From the NCBI GenBank assembly GCA_041398825.1, contig JAWKTX010000014.1, forward strand, positions 77,110 through 141,109: a DNA stretch of 64,000 nucleotides, read 5' to 3'. Position 1 is the first letter of the stretch. Every line of letters starts with the position of its first letter. The position numbers were made by a program, and so were the translations under genes. This document shows, piece after piece, positions 6,143 through 12,802 of the stretch. The notes below the pieces were generated by a model. The model saw nothing but the letters and a program-made list of their open reading frames with translations, made no database searches and had not been told where the DNA came from. Source of the DNA: Planctomycetaceae bacterium (GTDB taxonomy: Bacteria; Planctomycetota; Planctomycetia; Planctomycetales; Planctomycetaceae).

Positions 6143-6227
6143 GGAGAGGTGGCAGAGTGGCCGATTGCACCGGTCTTGAAAACCGGCGTCCCGCAAGGGA
6201 CCGTGAGTTCGAATCTCACCCTCTCCG
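6143..6227 (+). tRNA. tRNA-Ser (anticodon UGA)
   Basis: The acceptor ggagagg pairs with cctctcc. The anticodon stem ccggt/accgg carries the loop ctTGAaa. A long variable arm (cgtcccgcaagggaccg) is typical of class II tRNAs. The T arm is gtgag-ttcgaat-ctcac. Total length is 85 nt. Confidence 0.9.
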
Positions 6228-6558: not shown

Positions 6559-9153
6559 TCAACCACCTGAATCGATGGCGGCAAAGCTTGTCGACGTTTT
6601 ATGGTCAGCGGCTGAATGCTTCAGTTTCCCGGAATGGAGCAGCCCAATGAGCAGCGACACAATTTTCTGATCTTTTGTGCGTTCATCGGTCGCGGGTCCT
6701 GCTTCAGGGGTACTTTCCGGATTTGCTCCATGCAGTTCGGGTGAAAGGTGTTCCCAGGGAGTAATTTGCCAGCGAGTCTTCCTGAGTTTGCTGTTTGTCT
6801 TGTCGTATCGCCAGCCGCTGATGAGGCGTTCGGCAGTCCAGCGATTGTGCTCCATGATGCGGATCTTTTCACTCGTACTTTCATCGAGCGGCGATAGTGA
6901 ACTGCCTTCGGCGATGTCCTCAGCAACTCCCTCAATTCGATAACCAAGTGCGGCCGCCTTTAACACGGAGTGGATGGCAGCCGATCGGTTGGACGCACGG
7001 TCTTCTTCGGTGATGGTGTTCCAGATGTCGCGAGCAGTCTTCTCGAGGGATTGCCAATCCAGGTGAGAAAATGCCGGTCCCGGATTTGTAGCGCTGCAGG
7101 CTGACTGCAGACTCGCAATGTGAGAGTCAAATCGGCTGTCTGAGCTCTGCATCCAAACCAAATGAATCAGTCTGGCCAGCCAATCGGTCCAGCCCTGTGT
7201 GACTTCCAGGTACGAAACACTGCCGTAGCACTGGCCAAAAGGAAACAGTTCGCATCCTTTACGCGACAGAGTCTGTTCTTTGCTGGTGCGTTGCTCCGTC
7301 AATAACTGAGACAGTTCGCGCTGTCTGGGAATCCAGACGAAAATCGGACAACGTTTTTCTATGGTTCGGAGTTTCGCATTCAGTCGCTCGGCCGTCGCAA
7401 AGTTACGACGATCATCCTCGAAGCAAACCAGAATGACTGGTTTCACTCCTCTTCGTTCAATTGCGGGGACCATCTCACCAAGGAAATTCTCGTCAGTGGC
7501 TTCCGTGTATTTCGCGTAATGGATGTTGCACACATATTCTATTCCCAGCGGAGCATCCTGGTCCGATAGTCGGACGCGTTCCAGGGGTCGATAGATGCGG
7601 GAGGACCAGTGATCTGCATCTTCATTGAAATTCCACTCGCGGATCGCATTCAGGTCGGGACCAAATCGAGGATTCTTTGCGGCGAATTCCTTCGCCTTCT
7701 TTTCGATATCGTCATCAACAACGGTCAGTCTCAGACGCTTGCCGTTCTCAAAATGAGCCAGTTCGCCCAGGTGCAGAGCCAGTGTCTGTCCGAATCGGCC
7801 AAAGCCGAGCATCACAAAATGAGCGACTTCATGCGATTCATTCGGGCGCATTTCATCGCCGAATAATGTTGCGTTCGCGATGTCTGCTAACAGTCGGCGG
7901 GAAGTTCGTTCCAGAGCATTAAAGACCTCGATGTCCATCAGTCGATTCGTGCCGAGTTCGATCGCGTCTGCGCGATTGCGCAATGCAATGGCAAGGTCGC
8001 GATCCATGATGTGAGCGAAGCATCTCAACGGCGCCAGCGTCGATCCATACCAGGTCGTTCTTCTGCCGAATGCGTTCAGGATATCACGAATTTCAACCGT
8101 ACTCTCGATATTGCATTCGTCCCTGCCTGTGACGAGAAATACCTCGGCGGCTCTGGCAACGGCCGATTCGACAAGGTTTTCTCTTTTTGTCGCATCACCG
8201 ACAATGCAAAGGATTCCGTGGTCGCGAGCCCACTTCAGGTTGGGGTTACCCTCGTCCGGTTCGATGACAACAATCAAACGGCGATCTTTCATGTCGATCA
8301 GATCGGCGACCAGTTGACGTCCAATTCGACCGAGCCCGCAGACGATAATATGCCCGGAAACGTTGAGAAGCTGCAACTTCTCCCAGGAGTCATGGAACAA
8401 TACCAGAATACCGCGAGACGCTACGGTGAGCGCCAGCATCATGGCAAATCCAGCTGCCCATTGCAGGCTTTGGTTCGTCAGTCGGCTCGGCTCGACGTTA
8501 AACGCAAAAATCTGAAACGTGTCATAGAGTCCTGCGACGATAGACTCCGCCTTGTACTGATTGTCGGCTGCGAATCCAAAACTGCCAAACGCCAGGACCA
8601 GCAGCCCCAGTGCAATCACGGCAAAGCCACTCCAGCGAATGCACCATGAACTCAGCATTCGATAATGGTAAGGGAACCGTCGGCGCAGAATGGCGATCCC
8701 CATCAACAGCAACAGCACTCCCACAAGGCCATAAAAGTAGAGACTGCTGAAGTAGCCTGAAGCAGTCAGGGGCCGCCCGGTGTTACAGACGGTCGCCTTT
8801 GCAGATTCCGGCATTTGTGATCCCGGCGACCCTCGATCTGGAGATACTTCGGCGGGGCCATCCGTCTTTAAATCACGAGTGTCAGATTTTGCATCCGAAT
8901 GAGTGGTGTCCGGGGGCGGCTGCTTCGTAATTGGCATGCCATCTTCGACCGAACCCTCAGGTTGCTTTGTACGACTCTGCGAAGGTGGTTCGAAGCCGGA
9001 GGCGACAATAACGAACGCCACCACGAAGAGGATCAGTACGCCAATCAGGGCCGACGAGCCGTCTGGGACATTGGCAACAGTCCCGGTGGATTGACGGCCA
9101 TTCGACTGTGAAACGCCACTCTTATCGTTCTCCGGCATGTCCCTTTTCCGCAT
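6559..9153 (-). CDS. polytopic membrane protein with two TrkA-N/RCK-type NAD-binding Rossmann domains and C-terminal RyR-like repeats
   Basis: The 864-aa ORF has about 4-5 N-terminal TM helices, for example LIGVLILFVVAFVIVASGF and WSGFAVIALGLLVLAFGSFGF. The TrkA-N pattern is IIVCGLGRIGRQLVADL...IVGDATKRENLVESAV...EVFLVTGRDECNIES. A second GxGxxG fold begins at FVMLGFGRFGQTLALHL. The C-terminus (KIRIMEHNRWTAERLISGWRYD...ITPWEHLSPE) resembles the RyR domain (Pfam PF02026) consensus. No TVGYG-type K+ selectivity filter is visible. The RyR assignment is from memory of the consensus and needs an HMM check. Confidence 0.6.
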   Translation of the reverse strand: MRKRDMPENDKSGVSQSNGRQSTGTVANVPDGSSALIGVLILFVVAFVIVASGFEPPSQSRTKQPEGSVEDGMPITKQPPPDTTHSDAKSDTRDLKTDGPAEVSPDRGSPGSQMPESAKATVCNTGRPLTASGYFSSLYFYGLVGVLLLLMGIAILRRRFPYHYRMLSSWCIRWSGFAVIALGLLVLAFGSFGFAADNQYKAESIVAGLYDTFQIFAFNVEPSRLTNQSLQWAAGFAMMLALTVASRGILVLFHDSWEKLQLLNVSGHIIVCGLGRIGRQLVADLIDMKDRRLIVVIEPDEGNPNLKWARDHGILCIVGDATKRENLVESAVARAAEVFLVTGRDECNIESTVEIRDILNAFGRRTTWYGSTLAPLRCFAHIMDRDLAIALRNRADAIELGTNRLMDIEVFNALERTSRRLLADIANATLFGDEMRPNESHEVAHFVMLGFGRFGQTLALHLGELAHFENGKRLRLTVVDDDIEKKAKEFAAKNPRFGPDLNAIREWNFNEDADHWSSRIYRPLERVRLSDQDAPLGIEYVCNIHYAKYTEATDENFLGEMVPAIERRGVKPVILVCFEDDRRNFATAERLNAKLRTIEKRCPIFVWIPRQRELSQLLTEQRTSKEQTLSRKGCELFPFGQCYGSVSYLEVTQGWTDWLARLIHLVWMQSSDSRFDSHIASLQSACSATNPGPAFSHLDWQSLEKTARDIWNTITEEDRASNRSAAIHSVLKAAALGYRIEGVAEDIAEGSSLSPLDESTSEKIRIMEHNRWTAERLISGWRYDKTNSKLRKTRWQITPWEHLSPELHGANPESTPEAGPATDERTKDQKIVSLLIGLLHSGKLKHSAADHKTSTSFAAIDSGG

Positions 9154-9655
9154 GACATGGTGAAGTCATCCACCCATCGAAAGCCAATCCAAAACGCTTC
9201 CATATCAACTCGTGGGGGCCATCCGTTCCTTGCGTCACTGAACTCAAGTGAGTCTATTCCGCGCGGATGACTGCCACAAGGGACCCCAGGGAGTTCCAGT
9301 ATCCCCTCTATCAACTCCCGGACACGCAGTGCCAGCGCCACCTGACCTTGCCGTAATCGATTTTCAGGAATCTGTTTGAGATTTGAATACGGGGCTGACA
9401 ACGATGGTGGGTCCGGGAATCAGAAGGTTCAAAGTCCGGCGGAAATTTGCTGTCTGGATGGCTGTGGCAAAGAACCCGGGTCGTGGGTTTCAAACCTGAG
9501 AACAATGGATCAGTATGTGCTCTTCGTGGGGGGAGCGTTGGAGCCAGTGGAATTTGGCACACAGTGCTGGACAAAGCCTGGTTTGTTTCGTTTGATATCA
9601 CGTCATTATTTCTCTCGTGGATCCAGCAGGACGTGAAGATCAAACAGGTCCGGTC

Positions 9656-12600
9656 ATGAAACTGTTTTTCAATTACCGACGCGATGACACAGACGATTTG
9701 GCTGGACGTCTGCATGATCGATTGTCGGTAGAATTCGGCGCGGAGAATATTTTTAAGGACGTCGATTCCATCCGACCGGGCCAAAACTGGCGAGTCGCAC
9801 TGGAGCGGTCGATTGCTTCGTCGGATATCGTTTTGGCGATCATCGGAAAGCAATGGCTGACAATTACGGATGAGTTGGGGCAGCGACGGATCGATGCGGA
9901 AGAGGATTTTGTACGTTTTGAGCTCGAGGCGGCTCGCAGAGCTGGCAAGATCATTTTGCCAGTTGTTGTCAAAGGGGCCAGCATCCCCAATCCGTCGCTG
10001 CTGCCTGAGTCCATCCGGTGGCTTTGTGATTTTCAGCAGTCTGAACTGCGAGCAGATCCATTCTTCAAGGACGATGTTGCCCGACTCCTGGCCGAGCTCG
10101 TGCGAATTCGGGACCGGCTCAAAGATCAGCAGGCTAAAGTCAGTGCTATGCCTGCCGGAAACAGAAATGTCAGCCACGAAGCCGGAGGGATTCTGCGATG
10201 CAGCAGCTGCCATGCCCAGTGTGATCGTTCCAGTCAATACTGTGACGTCTGCGGGGCCGGGTTATGGACGACATGCCCATCGTGCGAATTGCCAGTACCA
10301 CAGAATCAGGTGTTTTGCAGCGGCTGTGGCAGCAATCTTCCAAAGCTGCGAGAGTTGATTGAGTTTACTGAAAAGACCGAAAAGCGGTTTGCAAGAACTC
10401 TGGCGATCGCAGATCCCGGGGAGCGTATGCATTCGATGGCAACCCTGGCTCGTGAGATTGAAGCCGCCATCCGCATTTATCCAAAGCATCAGCCTCTGGC
10501 ACATCTGCATTTTCAGGCGACGGAAGTTCATCGCAGGTCCGCGCGTGACCTGGCGGACGCTGTTTACGAATCCGGAAAGCTGGATCTTGCCCGAGAACAG
10601 TATACCCTGCTCAAGCAAATTGACCCTCTCAGCGAACATGCCAACGTGCAACTCGCGGCAATCGATGCTCGCTTCAAAGCGGACGCGAAAGCCTATCGAG
10701 AGCGGATTGCAAAGGGTGATTTCAAAAGGGCCATCGAAATCATCCTCAAGCTGGTCGATGCTTTCCCGGAGGACAGGCAGCTACGGGAGGACTTGCAGCA
10801 GTGTCAGGCGATACAGGACCGAATTGTTCGACTGATTCCTGAAGGTATCAGAGATCTGAAACGGCGGAAACAGTTTCTGGCGCTGGAGCAGGAGCTGCTG
10901 TGGCTCCGTCAACAAAAGATTCCTGTCAGGAAGCTTGACGAATGGCTTCAGGAAACGAAATCCATCGTTCGGCAGGCAAACCATGAATTCCTGCAGGCAC
11001 AAAGTGAATTGCGAGAGGGCCGCTTTCGACAGACCAGAAAACTTGCAAATGTCGTACTGAATCTTACTGCAGACCACGCAGGTGCCCGGGAACTGCTGGC
11101 TGCAACCAGTGGTACGGAATTAATGATTGCGAAGCTCAACGGATTGCTGCGAAAACAGCAGTACTGTGCGGCTAATCAACTGGTAAAAAAGCTGGCGGAA
11201 GACAACATCTCGGATCCCAGAGTGATACGACTGGCGGCAGCAACAAATGTCGAAATCACGACACTGGATTCGTCGATTCGACTGATACTGATGTTGTTTA
11301 TCGTCGCGTTTGTCCCGGGATATATCATCGGAAACAAAGTCTTTGAACAGCTGCAACTCAGCCCTTCAGCCACTGGTAGTCTTGTACAAACTCTCATCTG
11401 GTTGGCGAGTATTTCTGCGATCCCGGTATTTCTTGCCACTGTGTTGACGTTTGCCTTACCCAATGGCGCAGAAAGAATCTCTCGTTTTGTCTTTGACTGG
11501 CTGCCATTCGGTCGTCTGACAAGAATGAAGAAACCTGCAGGCGAGCAAAATTCCGAATCTGACGAAGAGGAAGAACTGAGCAACACCGCAGAACTGGATT
11601 CACCGGCAATTGAGACGCCCATTCCCGAACATTCCGTTCCCGGACATGATGTCGCCACCGTATCGGATAGTTCTCTGCAGACTTCGCCAGCGGAAGTGCA
11701 GGTCAAAGATGCGGGATCGGTGAACACAACTCGTCTCTCAGGAGACGATCCCCCTGACCCATTGCTGACGGTGGGGGCGGATCGTTCTGCCGGTCTGCTG
11801 GAAATGCTGTCCGTTGGTGTTCTTTTGTATTGCGTGTCCGTCGCGTGCGGAAACAACTTGTGGAACTGGTTACTTGGCCTGCGTTTTGATGCCTCGGTCG
11901 AAACGGATGCCAGGACGGTTGAAATACTCCGTCCGTTTTCAAGCGTCTTTCCATTGCTCGGGGCAGCAGTGATCGCGGTTTTCATCGAATCGGCATCCCG
12001 ATGGCGTCGTATCCTGACCGCTGGTGGAATCGGAATTCTCATCCAACTGCTGACCGCCATCCTTTTTCCGACAGCGGCGAAGTCCATCCAGGCAATCGTT
12101 CTTGGATTGATTCTTCTGTTGGTCATTTCCGAAGTGCGACGCGTATCCGTTGGCCGTGTCCTGCTCGTTCAGTTGGGCGCATTGACTGGAGCAACTTTGG
12201 TGTTTTCGGCAGCAATCCTGCCTCTGTTGCTTGCAGCAATTCTGCTGGGCTTTGAAAGCCGGTCGATTCCAGCGGCGTCTTTTTTGCAGGTGTGCCTGAC
12301 ATCGTTATTAATGTGCCAGATCTACGTTTCTGGTTCTTCTGCTGGTTCACTGCAGATTTCACGACTAGCGGCTGACTATCCGGCAGTTCGCGGCACCATG
12401 TCGATTGGTGCGGGCTGGATCGCTGCGGCAATCATTACGATTTCGGTTAGCTGGCTCACGTCTATTGTCCGTGAAGAATGGCACGGCGTTGCAAAGTGGG
12501 TACTTCTTATCTTCATGCTGCAGATGATACCTTTCGGTTTATCAGGCAGACTCGGACTGCGTTCTCAGCGGCTTTGGTTACTGGTGAGCGTGGTCTGGAC

Positions 12601-12802
12601 CACAACAGTTGCGGCCTTGTGGTGGCTACTGCCGACATCAGCTCTGCTTATGTTCCCCGTCACATTTGCATTCAGTGCGATCAGCCTGCTTCGGCTGGAA
12701 ACCTGCAACGTATTTACTCACTGGAACACTATCTGGCAGCAAATAAGGGTCAGACACTCAAGGCGTATGTTCGTCATCCGGCAAGTTCTTCGCCGCAACT
12801 GA
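9656..12802 (+). CDS. TIR-domain protein fused to a double zinc ribbon, helical repeats and a polytopic membrane domain
   Basis: The N-terminus reads MKLFFNYRRDDTDDLAGRLHDRL...IFKDVDSIRPGQNW...SSDIVLAIIGKQWL...EDFVRFELEAARRAGKIILPVVV, the bacterial TIR_2 pattern. It is followed by CSSC..CDVC..CPSC..CSGC (four CxxC pairs), ~330 aa of helical/TPR-like sequence, 2 TM helices, an acidic linker (SESDEEEELS) and ~8-10 more TM helices. The track ORF starts at GTG 9617. The ATG at 9656 sits directly in front of the TIR core, so it is preferred. Confidence 0.8.
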   Translation: MKLFFNYRRDDTDDLAGRLHDRLSVEFGAENIFKDVDSIRPGQNWRVALERSIASSDIVLAIIGKQWLTITDELGQRRIDAEEDFVRFELEAARRAGKIILPVVVKGASIPNPSLLPESIRWLCDFQQSELRADPFFKDDVARLLAELVRIRDRLKDQQAKVSAMPAGNRNVSHEAGGILRCSSCHAQCDRSSQYCDVCGAGLWTTCPSCELPVPQNQVFCSGCGSNLPKLRELIEFTEKTEKRFARTLAIADPGERMHSMATLAREIEAAIRIYPKHQPLAHLHFQATEVHRRSARDLADAVYESGKLDLAREQYTLLKQIDPLSEHANVQLAAIDARFKADAKAYRERIAKGDFKRAIEIILKLVDAFPEDRQLREDLQQCQAIQDRIVRLIPEGIRDLKRRKQFLALEQELLWLRQQKIPVRKLDEWLQETKSIVRQANHEFLQAQSELREGRFRQTRKLANVVLNLTADHAGARELLAATSGTELMIAKLNGLLRKQQYCAANQLVKKLAEDNISDPRVIRLAAATNVEITTLDSSIRLILMLFIVAFVPGYIIGNKVFEQLQLSPSATGSLVQTLIWLASISAIPVFLATVLTFALPNGAERISRFVFDWLPFGRLTRMKKPAGEQNSESDEEEELSNTAELDSPAIETPIPEHSVPGHDVATVSDSSLQTSPAEVQVKDAGSVNTTRLSGDDPPDPLLTVGADRSAGLLEMLSVGVLLYCVSVACGNNLWNWLLGLRFDASVETDARTVEILRPFSSVFPLLGAAVIAVFIESASRWRRILTAGGIGILIQLLTAILFPTAAKSIQAIVLGLILLLVISEVRRVSVGRVLLVQLGALTGATLVFSAAILPLLLAAILLGFESRSIPAASFLQVCLTSLLMCQIYVSGSSAGSLQISRLAADYPAVRGTMSIGAGWIAAAIITISVSWLTSIVREEWHGVAKWVLLIFMLQMIPFGLSGRLGLRSQRLWLLVSVVWTTTVAALWWLLPTSALLMFPVTFAFSAISLLRLETCNVFTHWNTIWQQIRVRHSRRMFVIRQVLRRN

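Follow-up and report, generated by a model that had tools for sequence, protein, structure and literature searches.

ADP-ribose (ADPR) signals made by TIR enzymes are an immune currency common to bacteria, plants and animals, and each new class of effector that responds to them is another route from the TIR signal to cell arrest. To our knowledge, no function had been assigned to the RyR domain before 2026 except in the ryanodine receptor. In that year, two preprints described phage proteins that use this domain to mop up or destroy the signal. RyDEP, from mycobacteriophage DyoEdafos, binds and cleaves 2′/3′-cyclic ADPR (2′/3′-cADPR) through H75, W78, H100 and D117, and most of its homologues bind without cleavage (PMC13232231). 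RyR Tad, from Pectobacterium phage CB1 (gp68), binds 3′cADPR, 2′cADPR and cADPR through H129/W132, K147/H154 and K170/D171 (10.64898/2026.06.04.730250). These proteins either bind 2′/3′-cADPR and cADPR at nanomolar affinity or cleave them (PMC13232231; 10.64898/2026.06.04.730250). Here, we describe a host protein in which the same kind of domain is joined to a channel-like membrane module. Its gene occupies positions 6559 to 9153 of a 64,000-nucleotide stretch of a Planctomycetaceae bacterium genome (GCA_041398825.1, contig JAWKTX010000014.1; the whole stretch is called the window below) and adjoins a TIR gene. A preliminary description of the gene considered the function of bacterial RyR domains unknown, a statement that the phage proteins have made outdated.

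Other described systems resemble the remaining parts of the protein. For instance, in GsuK (the multi-ligand-gated K+ channel of Geobacter sulfurreducens, 4gx0/4gx5) and in MthK the pore module leads directly into an RCK domain, as in the window protein, and GsuK also shares its two RCK domains per subunit. Additionally, among the 29 types of TIR-associated effector distinguished by Yirmiya et al. there is a type X “ion channel” effector, ThsK, whose signal is unknown (10.64898/2025.12.03.692087). We put at slightly better than even the reading that the window gene encodes a nucleotide-gated, non-K+-selective P-loop cation channel, in which a RyR Repeat12-like domain would be the probable sensor of an NAD+-derived signal made by the adjacent TIR protein, and which would act as a Thoeris-like effector.

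Architecture of the channel-like protein

We found 40 homologues of the 864-amino-acid protein, with identities of up to 69%, which are named “NAD-binding protein” or “Kch” of Pirellulaceae or Planctomycetaceae. An alignment of 33 channel-family sequences (A1) was used to define invariant residues, to build a family profile and to compute a structural model with AlphaFold2 (AF2). The protein can be divided as follows, with confidence of the model given as the predicted local distance difference test score (pLDDT):

6559..9153, minus strand: whole channel-like gene, 864 amino acids (translation of the open reading frame), with TM1 (a transmembrane helix), linker, pore-like module, RCK1, RCK2 and tandem RyR repeats
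8992..9048, minus strand: additional N-terminal transmembrane (TM) helix, residues 36-54, from a hydropathy scan; present in the closest relatives only (A1)
8764..8991, minus strand: low-complexity linker, residues 55-130, predicted to be disordered (pLDDT <50 at 51-126) and not conserved (A1)
8368..8763, minus strand: pore-like module, residues 131-262; by DSSP of the model, a TM segment (138-156) followed by the outer helix (161-197), a short helix (204-216), a loop (217-227), the inner helix (228-252) and a linker helix (254-262)
8473..8544, minus strand: pore-helix and filter-equivalent segment, residues 204-227, SIVAGLYDTFQIF-AFNVEPSRLTN
7834..8367, minus strand: RCK1 or TrkA-N Rossmann domain, residues 263-440, with the GxGxxG motif G273-L-G-R-I-G278 (nt 8320-8337), E298 at the end of beta-2 and a GDAT motif (D320)
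7234..7833, minus strand: RCK2, a divergent second Rossmann domain, residues 441-640, with beta-1 at 443, G450-F-G-R-F-G455 (nt 7789-7806) and an invariant D480 at the end of beta-2
6910..7233, minus strand: RyR repeat 1, residues 641-748, degenerate in sequence, with H664-x-x-W667 and invariant E716, R719, S721, N722 and S724
6598..6909, minus strand: RyR repeat 2, residues 749-852, with H769 (nt 6847-6849), W772 (6838-6840), R794 (6772-6774) and K827-D828 (6670-6675)

The conserved core of the family starts near residue 130 in A1, where most homologues begin; the disordered linker that precedes it, which is also confined to the closest relatives, is probably located outside the cytoplasm. 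In the single-chain AF2 model (pLDDT 81.4; predicted template modelling score, 0.77), TM helix 138-159 is followed by the outer helix, the 13-residue helix, the loop, the inner helix, the linker helix, two Rossmann domains and a helical C-terminal domain. When the whole model was compared with the PDB by Foldseek, GsuK was the top match (3e-8), followed by TrkA, which has tandem RCK domains (1e-7), and full-length MthK (4e-6); further matches included the gating ring of LjCASTOR (6o7a), KtrA, KefC and Slo1. Because of this ranking, with GsuK, TrkA, MthK and CASTOR in it, we read the protein as laid out like an RCK-gated P-loop channel whose chains each carry two RCK domains. A KefC- or antiporter-type transporter was also considered and rejected, as the NCBIfam Trk and Kef matches of the protein are confined to the RCK domain and the membrane part consists of 3-4 helices.

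In the first Rossmann domain, TrkA_N (PF02254) matches residues 269-358 with an E value of 3.7e-17 (63 bits against a cut-off of 23.8), G273, G275, G278 and D320 are invariant and E298 is conserved, and the profile matches of this domain in the PDB are TrkA, MthK and KTN domains. The Pfam matches of RCK2 are weak (Sacchrp_dh_NADP, 20 bits, residues 447-497; PF03435, weak in 24 of the 33 homologues), but the tandem-RCK fold matches (GsuK, TrkA, the CASTOR ring and Slo1) support it and it aligns in register with RCK1 (hhalign, P = 0.0025). The two TrkA-N/RCK domains of the preliminary description are thus both confirmed, the second through its fold and this alignment.

At the C-terminus, the assignment to the RyR family is secure. 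The single sequence falls narrowly below the gathering score of PF02026 (21.8 against 27.4 bits; E 2.3e-4; residues 753-808), but 26 of the 33 homologues match this family at E ≤ 0.01, the best at 2.6e-9. In fact, the A1 profile matches the Bacteroides/human RyR1 Repeat12 chimera (6uhi) in the PDB over two stretches at 5e-13, as well as RyR1, RyR2 and RyR3 at 1e-9 to 1e-10. A separate model of the C-terminal 225 residues (pLDDT 88) has structural matches solely to RyR Repeat12, over about 220-240 columns that include both repeats: 6uhi (1.9e-4), human RyR3 Repeat12 with ATP, AMP-PCP or dantrolene (including 9ls7 and 6uhh), and RyR1 and RyR2. The single-repeat Bacteroides protein 3nrt matches over about 95-104 columns. 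As the model spans both repeats of Repeat12, we conclude that two RyR repeats lie in one chain; repeat 1 and repeat 2 show no significant sequence similarity by hhalign, so the degenerate first copy is supported by structure alone. The RyR domain that had been proposed here consequently stands by family profile and by fold, but not by the single-sequence PF02026 cut-off, and the degenerate copy ahead of it stands by structure, but not by sequence.

The residues that line the nucleotide pocket of the phage proteins are the most conserved feature of this C-terminus across all clades. H769, W772 and D828 are invariant, K827 is almost invariant, and, in homologues with a short loop, the spacings in A1 (H+3 = W, H+25 = H/R, H+42 = D) equal those of H75/W78/H100/D117 in RyDEP and H129/W132/H154/D171 in RyR Tad. 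The position at +25 is Arg (R794) in the clade of the window protein and His in the other clades, and in the window protein's clade a 17-residue loop is inserted ahead of K-D. RyDEP and RyR Tad have the PF02026/Repeat12 fold and the pocket (HxxW, +25 His/Arg, +42 K-D) in common with the window protein. By contrast, they are small, soluble, homodimeric phage anti-defence proteins, while in the window protein two unequal repeats share a chain and are fused to a membrane protein of the host.

In the membrane part, DSSP of the model places the inner helix directly ahead of RCK1 (beta-1 at residue 269), which is the topology M1-P-M2-RCK. The segment that would correspond to the pore helix and filter reads S-I-V-A-G-L-Y-D-T-F-Q-I-F / A-F-N-V-E-P and carries the conserved signature Y-E/D-T-F-Q-I-F-A-F-N. 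Within it, Y210 and Q214 are invariant in A1 and, in a site table of 50 homologues, widely kept in the wider family, and F216 and N219 are almost invariant in the clade of the window protein. The K+ selectivity filter TVGYG is absent from the window protein and from every member of A1, with A-F-N-V-E-P at the equivalent position, and the Pfam scan of the channel protein found no match to PF07885. In hhalign comparisons with 27 planctomycete Ion_trans_2 channels, the alignment is in register over the outer helix and over the beginning of the pore helix (S-x-x-x-A-x-Y), and ends at the filter; the comparison of the family with one canonical RCK K+ channel (P0041) aligned RCK1 alone. On the basis of the modelled topology, we consider the membrane part likely to be a degenerate P-loop pore (M1-P-M2). 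The same genome encodes a separate, canonical K+ channel, with Ion_trans_2 followed by TrkA_N in a 345-amino-acid frame (G000:C10:151183-151725, L006), and for this reason the gene described here is not the ordinary RCK K+ channel of the genome. These observations agree with the preliminary description in that TVGYG is missing and the protein is no ordinary TrkA/Kch-type channel; its N-terminal “TM bundle”, or “atypical TM domain”, is better described as an M1-P-M2 layout with a conserved signature than as a generic bundle.

With respect to GsuK and MthK, then, the window protein lacks TVGYG and a match to the TrkA_C lobe, adds 1-2 N-terminal TM helices and a RyR Repeat12-like domain, and is similar in sequence in RCK1 only. 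CASTOR/POLLUX/DMI1 and BK (Slo1) are alike in having a P-loop pore and a tandem-RCK gating ring, together with a non-canonical or modified filter in the case of CASTOR, but they are eukaryotic and Ca2+-regulated, have no RyR module, and no sequence relationship to them was detected outside the RCK fold. Animal ryanodine receptors and the SARM1/CD38-cADPR-RyR axis are alike in combining an ion channel with a two-repeat RyR module, with a TIR enzyme as a possible source of cADPR; their Repeat12 binds adenine nucleotides, and direct binding of cADPR to the receptor is unsettled. Their pore is unrelated (6 TM helices in 5,000 amino acids, against 3-4 TM helices here), so homology is restricted to the RyR module. 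Finally, the oomycete PKDRR proteins are reported to join a RyR domain to a small cation channel of the polycystin type, distinct from the ryanodine receptors, but their pore is a eukaryotic TRP/PKD pore and they have neither an RCK domain nor a TIR context (PMC7399828).

Association with TIR and DUF4062 genes

The gene next to the channel gene in the window is transcribed divergently from it:

9154..9655, no strand: intergenic region that separates the divergent channel and TIR genes (sequence inspection)
9656..12802, plus strand: partner TIR gene, with TIR_2 (nt 9659-10099), a double zinc ribbon (about 10199-10330) and a helical region, and with some 12 TM helices at about 11249-12691

Pfam identifies TIR_2 (2.1e-10) and DZR in the partner, and the TM helices were taken from a hydropathy scan. 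The predicted catalytic Glu of its TIR domain is E102 when numbered from the GTG start (nt 9920-9922). The longest frame of this gene opens at GTG 9617, and the first strand of the TIR domain directly follows ATG 9656 (MKLFFNYRRDD), which makes the ATG the likelier start. In the intergenic region, scans for sigma-70 promoters, terminators and repeats found nothing above shuffled sequences. The 7.09-Mb genome contains two TIR_2 genes and a single RyR-like gene, the channel gene itself, and one of the former adjoins the latter.

This arrangement is not peculiar to the window. Loci of homologues were collected from assemblies, a set of 185,579 species genomes and a phylum sample, and TIR neighbours were identified by an iterative TIR hidden Markov model (HMM) seeded with the TIR of the window and checked against Pfam. 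TIR genes, or genes for TIR-like DUF4062 proteins, flank channel homologues in at least 18 loci from at least five phyla. A TIR gene lies directly beside the homologue in L004, L007/L084, L019, L026, L028, L031, L032, L034, L036, L039, L040, L042, L050, L053 and L080. The pair is on the same strand and tightly spaced in nine of these (L019, L028, L031, L032, L034, L036, L040, L042 and L050), and divergent in the window and in L004. All five neighbours scanned with Pfam matched TIR_2, in architectures that included TIR-nSTAND1-HEAT, TIR-TPR, TIR-AAA_16 and short TIR forms. When the 80 immediate neighbours of about 46 loci were classified, TIR_2 was the commonest Pfam family (11), followed by PhoX (5) and by AAA_16/TPR and DUF4062 (4); all five PhoX neighbours belong to one alphaproteobacterial clade. 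DUF4062-NACHT-TPR proteins are encoded directly upstream of the homologue in L038 and L057, and at least seven other loci contain DUF4062-like domains. In a 2026 preprint, DUF4062 is reported to be a TIR-like NADase that makes ADPR (10.64898/2026.05.01.722283).

The linkage of the channel family to TIR and DUF4062 genes is non-random. In two genomes, of 8.7 Mb (G424) and 6.2 Mb (G427), the only TIR_2 gene adjoins the channel gene. Across 16 genomes, about 0.075 TIR adjacencies would be expected by chance and 12 were observed, a comparison that is illustrative because these genomes were picked with the outcome known. On a tree of 46 homologues, the presence of a TIR neighbour requires at least nine changes, and the architectures of the partners vary (TM, STAND-HEAT, kinase-WD40, TPR and short forms). 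Consequently, the pairing is recurrent rather than one inherited accident. Of the TIR proteins encoded beside homologues, at least 80% retain the catalytic Glu.

Some partners deserve separate mention. In two Mariniblastus metagenome-assembled genomes (MAGs; L032:12305-16891 and L034:12124-16695), the neighbour is a 1,520-amino-acid protein with a TIR domain, a Ser/Thr-kinase-like domain (PADLOC PD-T4-6/mad6-type) and a multi-propeller WD40 region; in L032, the WD40 assignment comes from Pfam, the kinase from PADLOC and the TIR from the TIR HMM together with a match to PF13676. The TIR gene of G427 is of this kinase-WD40 type. Upstream of a 47%-identical homologue (L117) there are three TIR genes, the adjoining one among them, and a SLATT gene. 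A Victivallales MAG (L038:1206-19893) carries four large DUF4062-like/STAND/TPR genes around the homologue, several TIR and DUF4062-like genes surround two channel paralogues in Verrucomicrobia (L039/L040), and TIR, DUF4062-STAND and SLATT genes are also abundant in some further loci. In L115 and L116, whose homologue is the second closest (61% identical) and was found in 32 contig-index blocks, a CAP12-type TIR fused to a periplasmic-binding-protein fold is encoded two genes away. This CAP12/Pycsar-type TIR-Peripla_BP_4 gene is followed by a ROK kinase gene (L115:863-6170, L116:2657-7964), with PfkB and GH32 hydrolase genes downstream, a sugar-metabolism setting that is odd for defence.

The family itself is large and patchily distributed. 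A profile search of 1.84 billion cluster representatives (50% identity) yielded 1,473 proteins at E ≤ 1e-30, mostly of 600-750 amino acids. Within Planctomycetota, members were found in 10 of 401 genomes, and in two of the 20 from the same family; others occur in Verrucomicrobiota, Lentisphaerota, Chloroflexota, Acidobacteriota, Actinomycetota, Bacteroidota and Pseudomonadota. Nine members form an alphaproteobacterial branch (L044, L046-L048, L051, L052, L055, L056 and L061) that never has a TIR neighbour and has instead conserved genes for a PhoX alkaline phosphatase and SelO. Among 50 homologues, the GxGxxG motif and the acidic residue are intact in both RCK domains of the TIR-linked clades and degenerate in both domains of this branch, which also has Gly or Ala in place of Q214 and keeps HxxW. 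It is probably functionally distinct.

Proposed mechanism and alternative explanations

If the channel protein is indeed a TIR-activated effector, four copies of it would probably assemble into a P-loop cation channel whose gating ring would be built from RCK1 and RCK2, as in GsuK, BK or CASTOR, with the RyR Repeat12-like nucleotide-binding domain attached to the tandem RCK module. Upon activation, the TIR partner would convert NAD+ into ADPR or a cyclic ADPR isomer. This nucleotide would bind to the pocket of repeat 2 (H-x-x-W / R(H) / K-D), and possibly also to the GxGxxG sites of the RCK domains, and the ring would then open a pore without a K+ filter, so that ions would leak and the cell would be depolarised, possibly as a defence against phages. 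The presence of candidate signal-binding (RyR/RCK) and output (pore-like) modules in one protein would fit the pattern of Thoeris effectors. The preliminary description had also proposed a ligand-gated membrane effector with a nucleotide-sensing module, and the comparative evidence points there, but it had left the divergent TIR neighbour unconnected, which we regard as the likeliest source of the ligand.

The proposed logic is Thoeris-like, with an effector class that we have not found described. In the accessible text and tables of Yirmiya et al., RyR, TrkA and RCK are not mentioned (10.64898/2025.12.03.692087), and our literature search, which included the conflict-system papers of the Aravind laboratory, found no description of a host RyR-plus-TrkA or RyR-plus-TIR effector. 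Among the Thoeris systems, the likeness is above all to type X, where a TIR gene with a catalytic Glu also adjoins a channel-like membrane protein, and with which the window pair would have in common the activation of a membrane effector by a TIR-made nucleotide. Identity with the type X ThsK effector was nevertheless rejected: the effector reached from the Vibrio TIR of Table S1 (P0162, 208 amino acids) is pore-only, with the filter TLTYGGF and neither RCK nor RyR, and its hhalign comparison with the family gave an E value of 0.29. Moreover, the type X TIR is of the ThsB_TIR type, whereas the partners of the channel family are TIR_2 or DUF4062 proteins fused to TM, STAND, WD40 or TPR regions. 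A plasmid search for the type X Thoeris TIR yielded type II (Macro) systems only.

Several observations weigh against a TIR-activated channel. Regarding the pore, the filter-equivalent loop has no glycine in the clade of the window protein, a family profile restricted to the TM region (A2) had no match among PDB sequences at E ≤ 10, and the hhalign match to the Ion_trans_2 channels is weak (P = 5.9e-4, probability 29%). Pore homology is thus drawn from the predicted fold and the topology, and it is this thin sequence evidence that leads us to speak of a likely pore. Regarding the sensor, R794 takes the place of the His that binds phosphate in the phage proteins. Regarding the linkage, about half of the loci with sufficient flanks lack a TIR or DUF4062 neighbour, and the close relatives L001, L002, L003, L021, L024 and L035 have no TIR gene within 8-10 kb; the genomes of the four of these six that were searched (L001, L021, L024 and L035) encode 4-13 TIR_2 genes elsewhere. 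In the window itself, the two genes are divergent, about 0.5 kb apart, and form no operon. Their other neighbours are housekeeping genes (tig, two clpP genes or clpP1P2, and genes for a DegT aminotransferase, an M42 peptidase and a methyltransferase), no other defence gene lies near the pair, the G+C profile is flat, without anomaly, and PADLOC gave no match for the channel protein.

Part of these observations would be expected of a physiological channel of the ordinary kind, which housekeeping nucleotides (NAD+/NADH, ATP/ADP) would gate as they do GsuK, Kch and the Ktr/Trk regulators, and in which RyR would be a metabolic sensor of adenine nucleotides and TIR would have no functional tie. Such a channel would account for the close homologues without TIR neighbours, for the housekeeping context, normal G+C and missing PADLOC match of the window gene, and for the alphaproteobacterial clade with its PhoX and SelO genes, and the solved RyR3 Repeat12 structures do hold ATP/ADP analogues. 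Even so, we consider it unlikely, since TIR and DUF4062 genes adjoin the channel gene far more often than expected by chance, repeatedly in separate phyla and with partners of varied architecture, the genome already has its canonical RCK K+ channel, and the distribution of the family is patchy. It may also be that TIR and DUF4062 proteins act as plain NADases and that a loss of NAD+, or a rise of linear ADPR, is read by the Rossmann sites of the RCK domains, with RyR in an accessory role (e.g., clearing or buffering the product). GxGxxG and the acidic beta-2 residue are indeed kept in the TIR-linked clades and lost in the TIR-less one, KTN/RCK domains have been solved with NAD+ (1lss), and DUF4062 partners are reported to make linear ADPR and no cyclic signal. 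What makes this explanation improbable in our opinion is that the RyR pocket is the most conserved C-terminal feature in every clade, the TIR-less one included, and that RyR modules accompany TIR/DUF4062 genes in proteins without RCK1 or a pore (the RelA_SpoT-SLOG-RyR proteins and P0039, see below).

The remaining alternative dispenses with conduction. In it, the protein would be a membrane-anchored sensor or enzyme whose RyR module sequesters or hydrolyses cADPR-type signals, as a RyDEP-like glycosidase would, so that TIR signalling is damped by an “off switch”. In its favour, H769 and D828 correspond to the catalytic His/Asp pair of RyDEP and are conserved, a canonical selectivity filter is missing, and no known channel matched the membrane part by sequence. 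Most of the tested RyDEP homologues with the same residues, however, bind without cleaving (PMC13232231), the M1-P-M2-RCK layout, the motif resembling a pore helix and the fold matches to full-length MthK and GsuK are those of a channel, and a tandem RCK ring would have no obvious role in a sponge; we regard an off switch as very unlikely.

Returning to the TIR-activated channel, a more specific and more ambitious version of it can be formulated, which we advance only tentatively. According to it, a bacterial channel would be gated directly by TIR-made cADPR through RyR Repeat12, and would be the prokaryotic counterpart, possibly even the evolutionary source of the sensor module, of the disputed animal cADPR-RyR pathway, as well as the representative of a new and widespread class of Thoeris-like effectors. 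If this were true, the channel-wired pocket of the host would be the missing “receiver” of the signal that the phage proteins mop up or destroy. It would also provide a small and tractable model (about 650-860 amino acids against 5,000) for how nucleotide binding to Repeat12 is converted into channel gating, could bear on whether cADPR acts directly on ryanodine receptors, and would add a P-loop channel with an unexplored filter sequence.

Position of the locus and other RyR proteins

The two-gene module lies between the M42 peptidase gene and a tRNA gene:

6143..6227, plus strand: tRNA-Ser(TGA), identified by ARAGORN, 331 nt past the 3′ end of the channel gene

This tRNA-Ser(TGA) gene is a possible island border. 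In a comparison aimed at an empty site or island, the M42-peptidase orthologues of the relatives G043 and G285 shared neither any other flanking gene nor the tRNA. Elsewhere in the family, one planctomycete carries two channel paralogues in tandem on the same strand (L077:8494-12413, G361:C46), with no TIR gene in the 17-kb contig.

RyR domains also occur in other proteins near channel homologues. A second RyR family, of about 830-870 amino acids, combines a RelA_SpoT pyrophosphokinase, a prokaryotic LSDAT/SLOG domain and a C-terminal RyR domain (PF02026, 6.9e-11; L053:7775-10393, plus strand). Genes for these proteins adjoin a channel homologue in seven loci (L030, L032, L034, L042, L043, L050 and L053) and occur without one, near DUF4062-like genes, in L054, L062, L063 and L065; they may encode a second maker or reader of signals in the same systems. 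Additionally, a soluble protein of 680 amino acids (P0039) joins an N-terminal TPR-S-type domain (PF20308) to an RCK2-like Rossmann domain and a RyR domain, and lacks the pore and RCK1, which suggests that RCK2 and RyR together constitute a portable sensor cassette.

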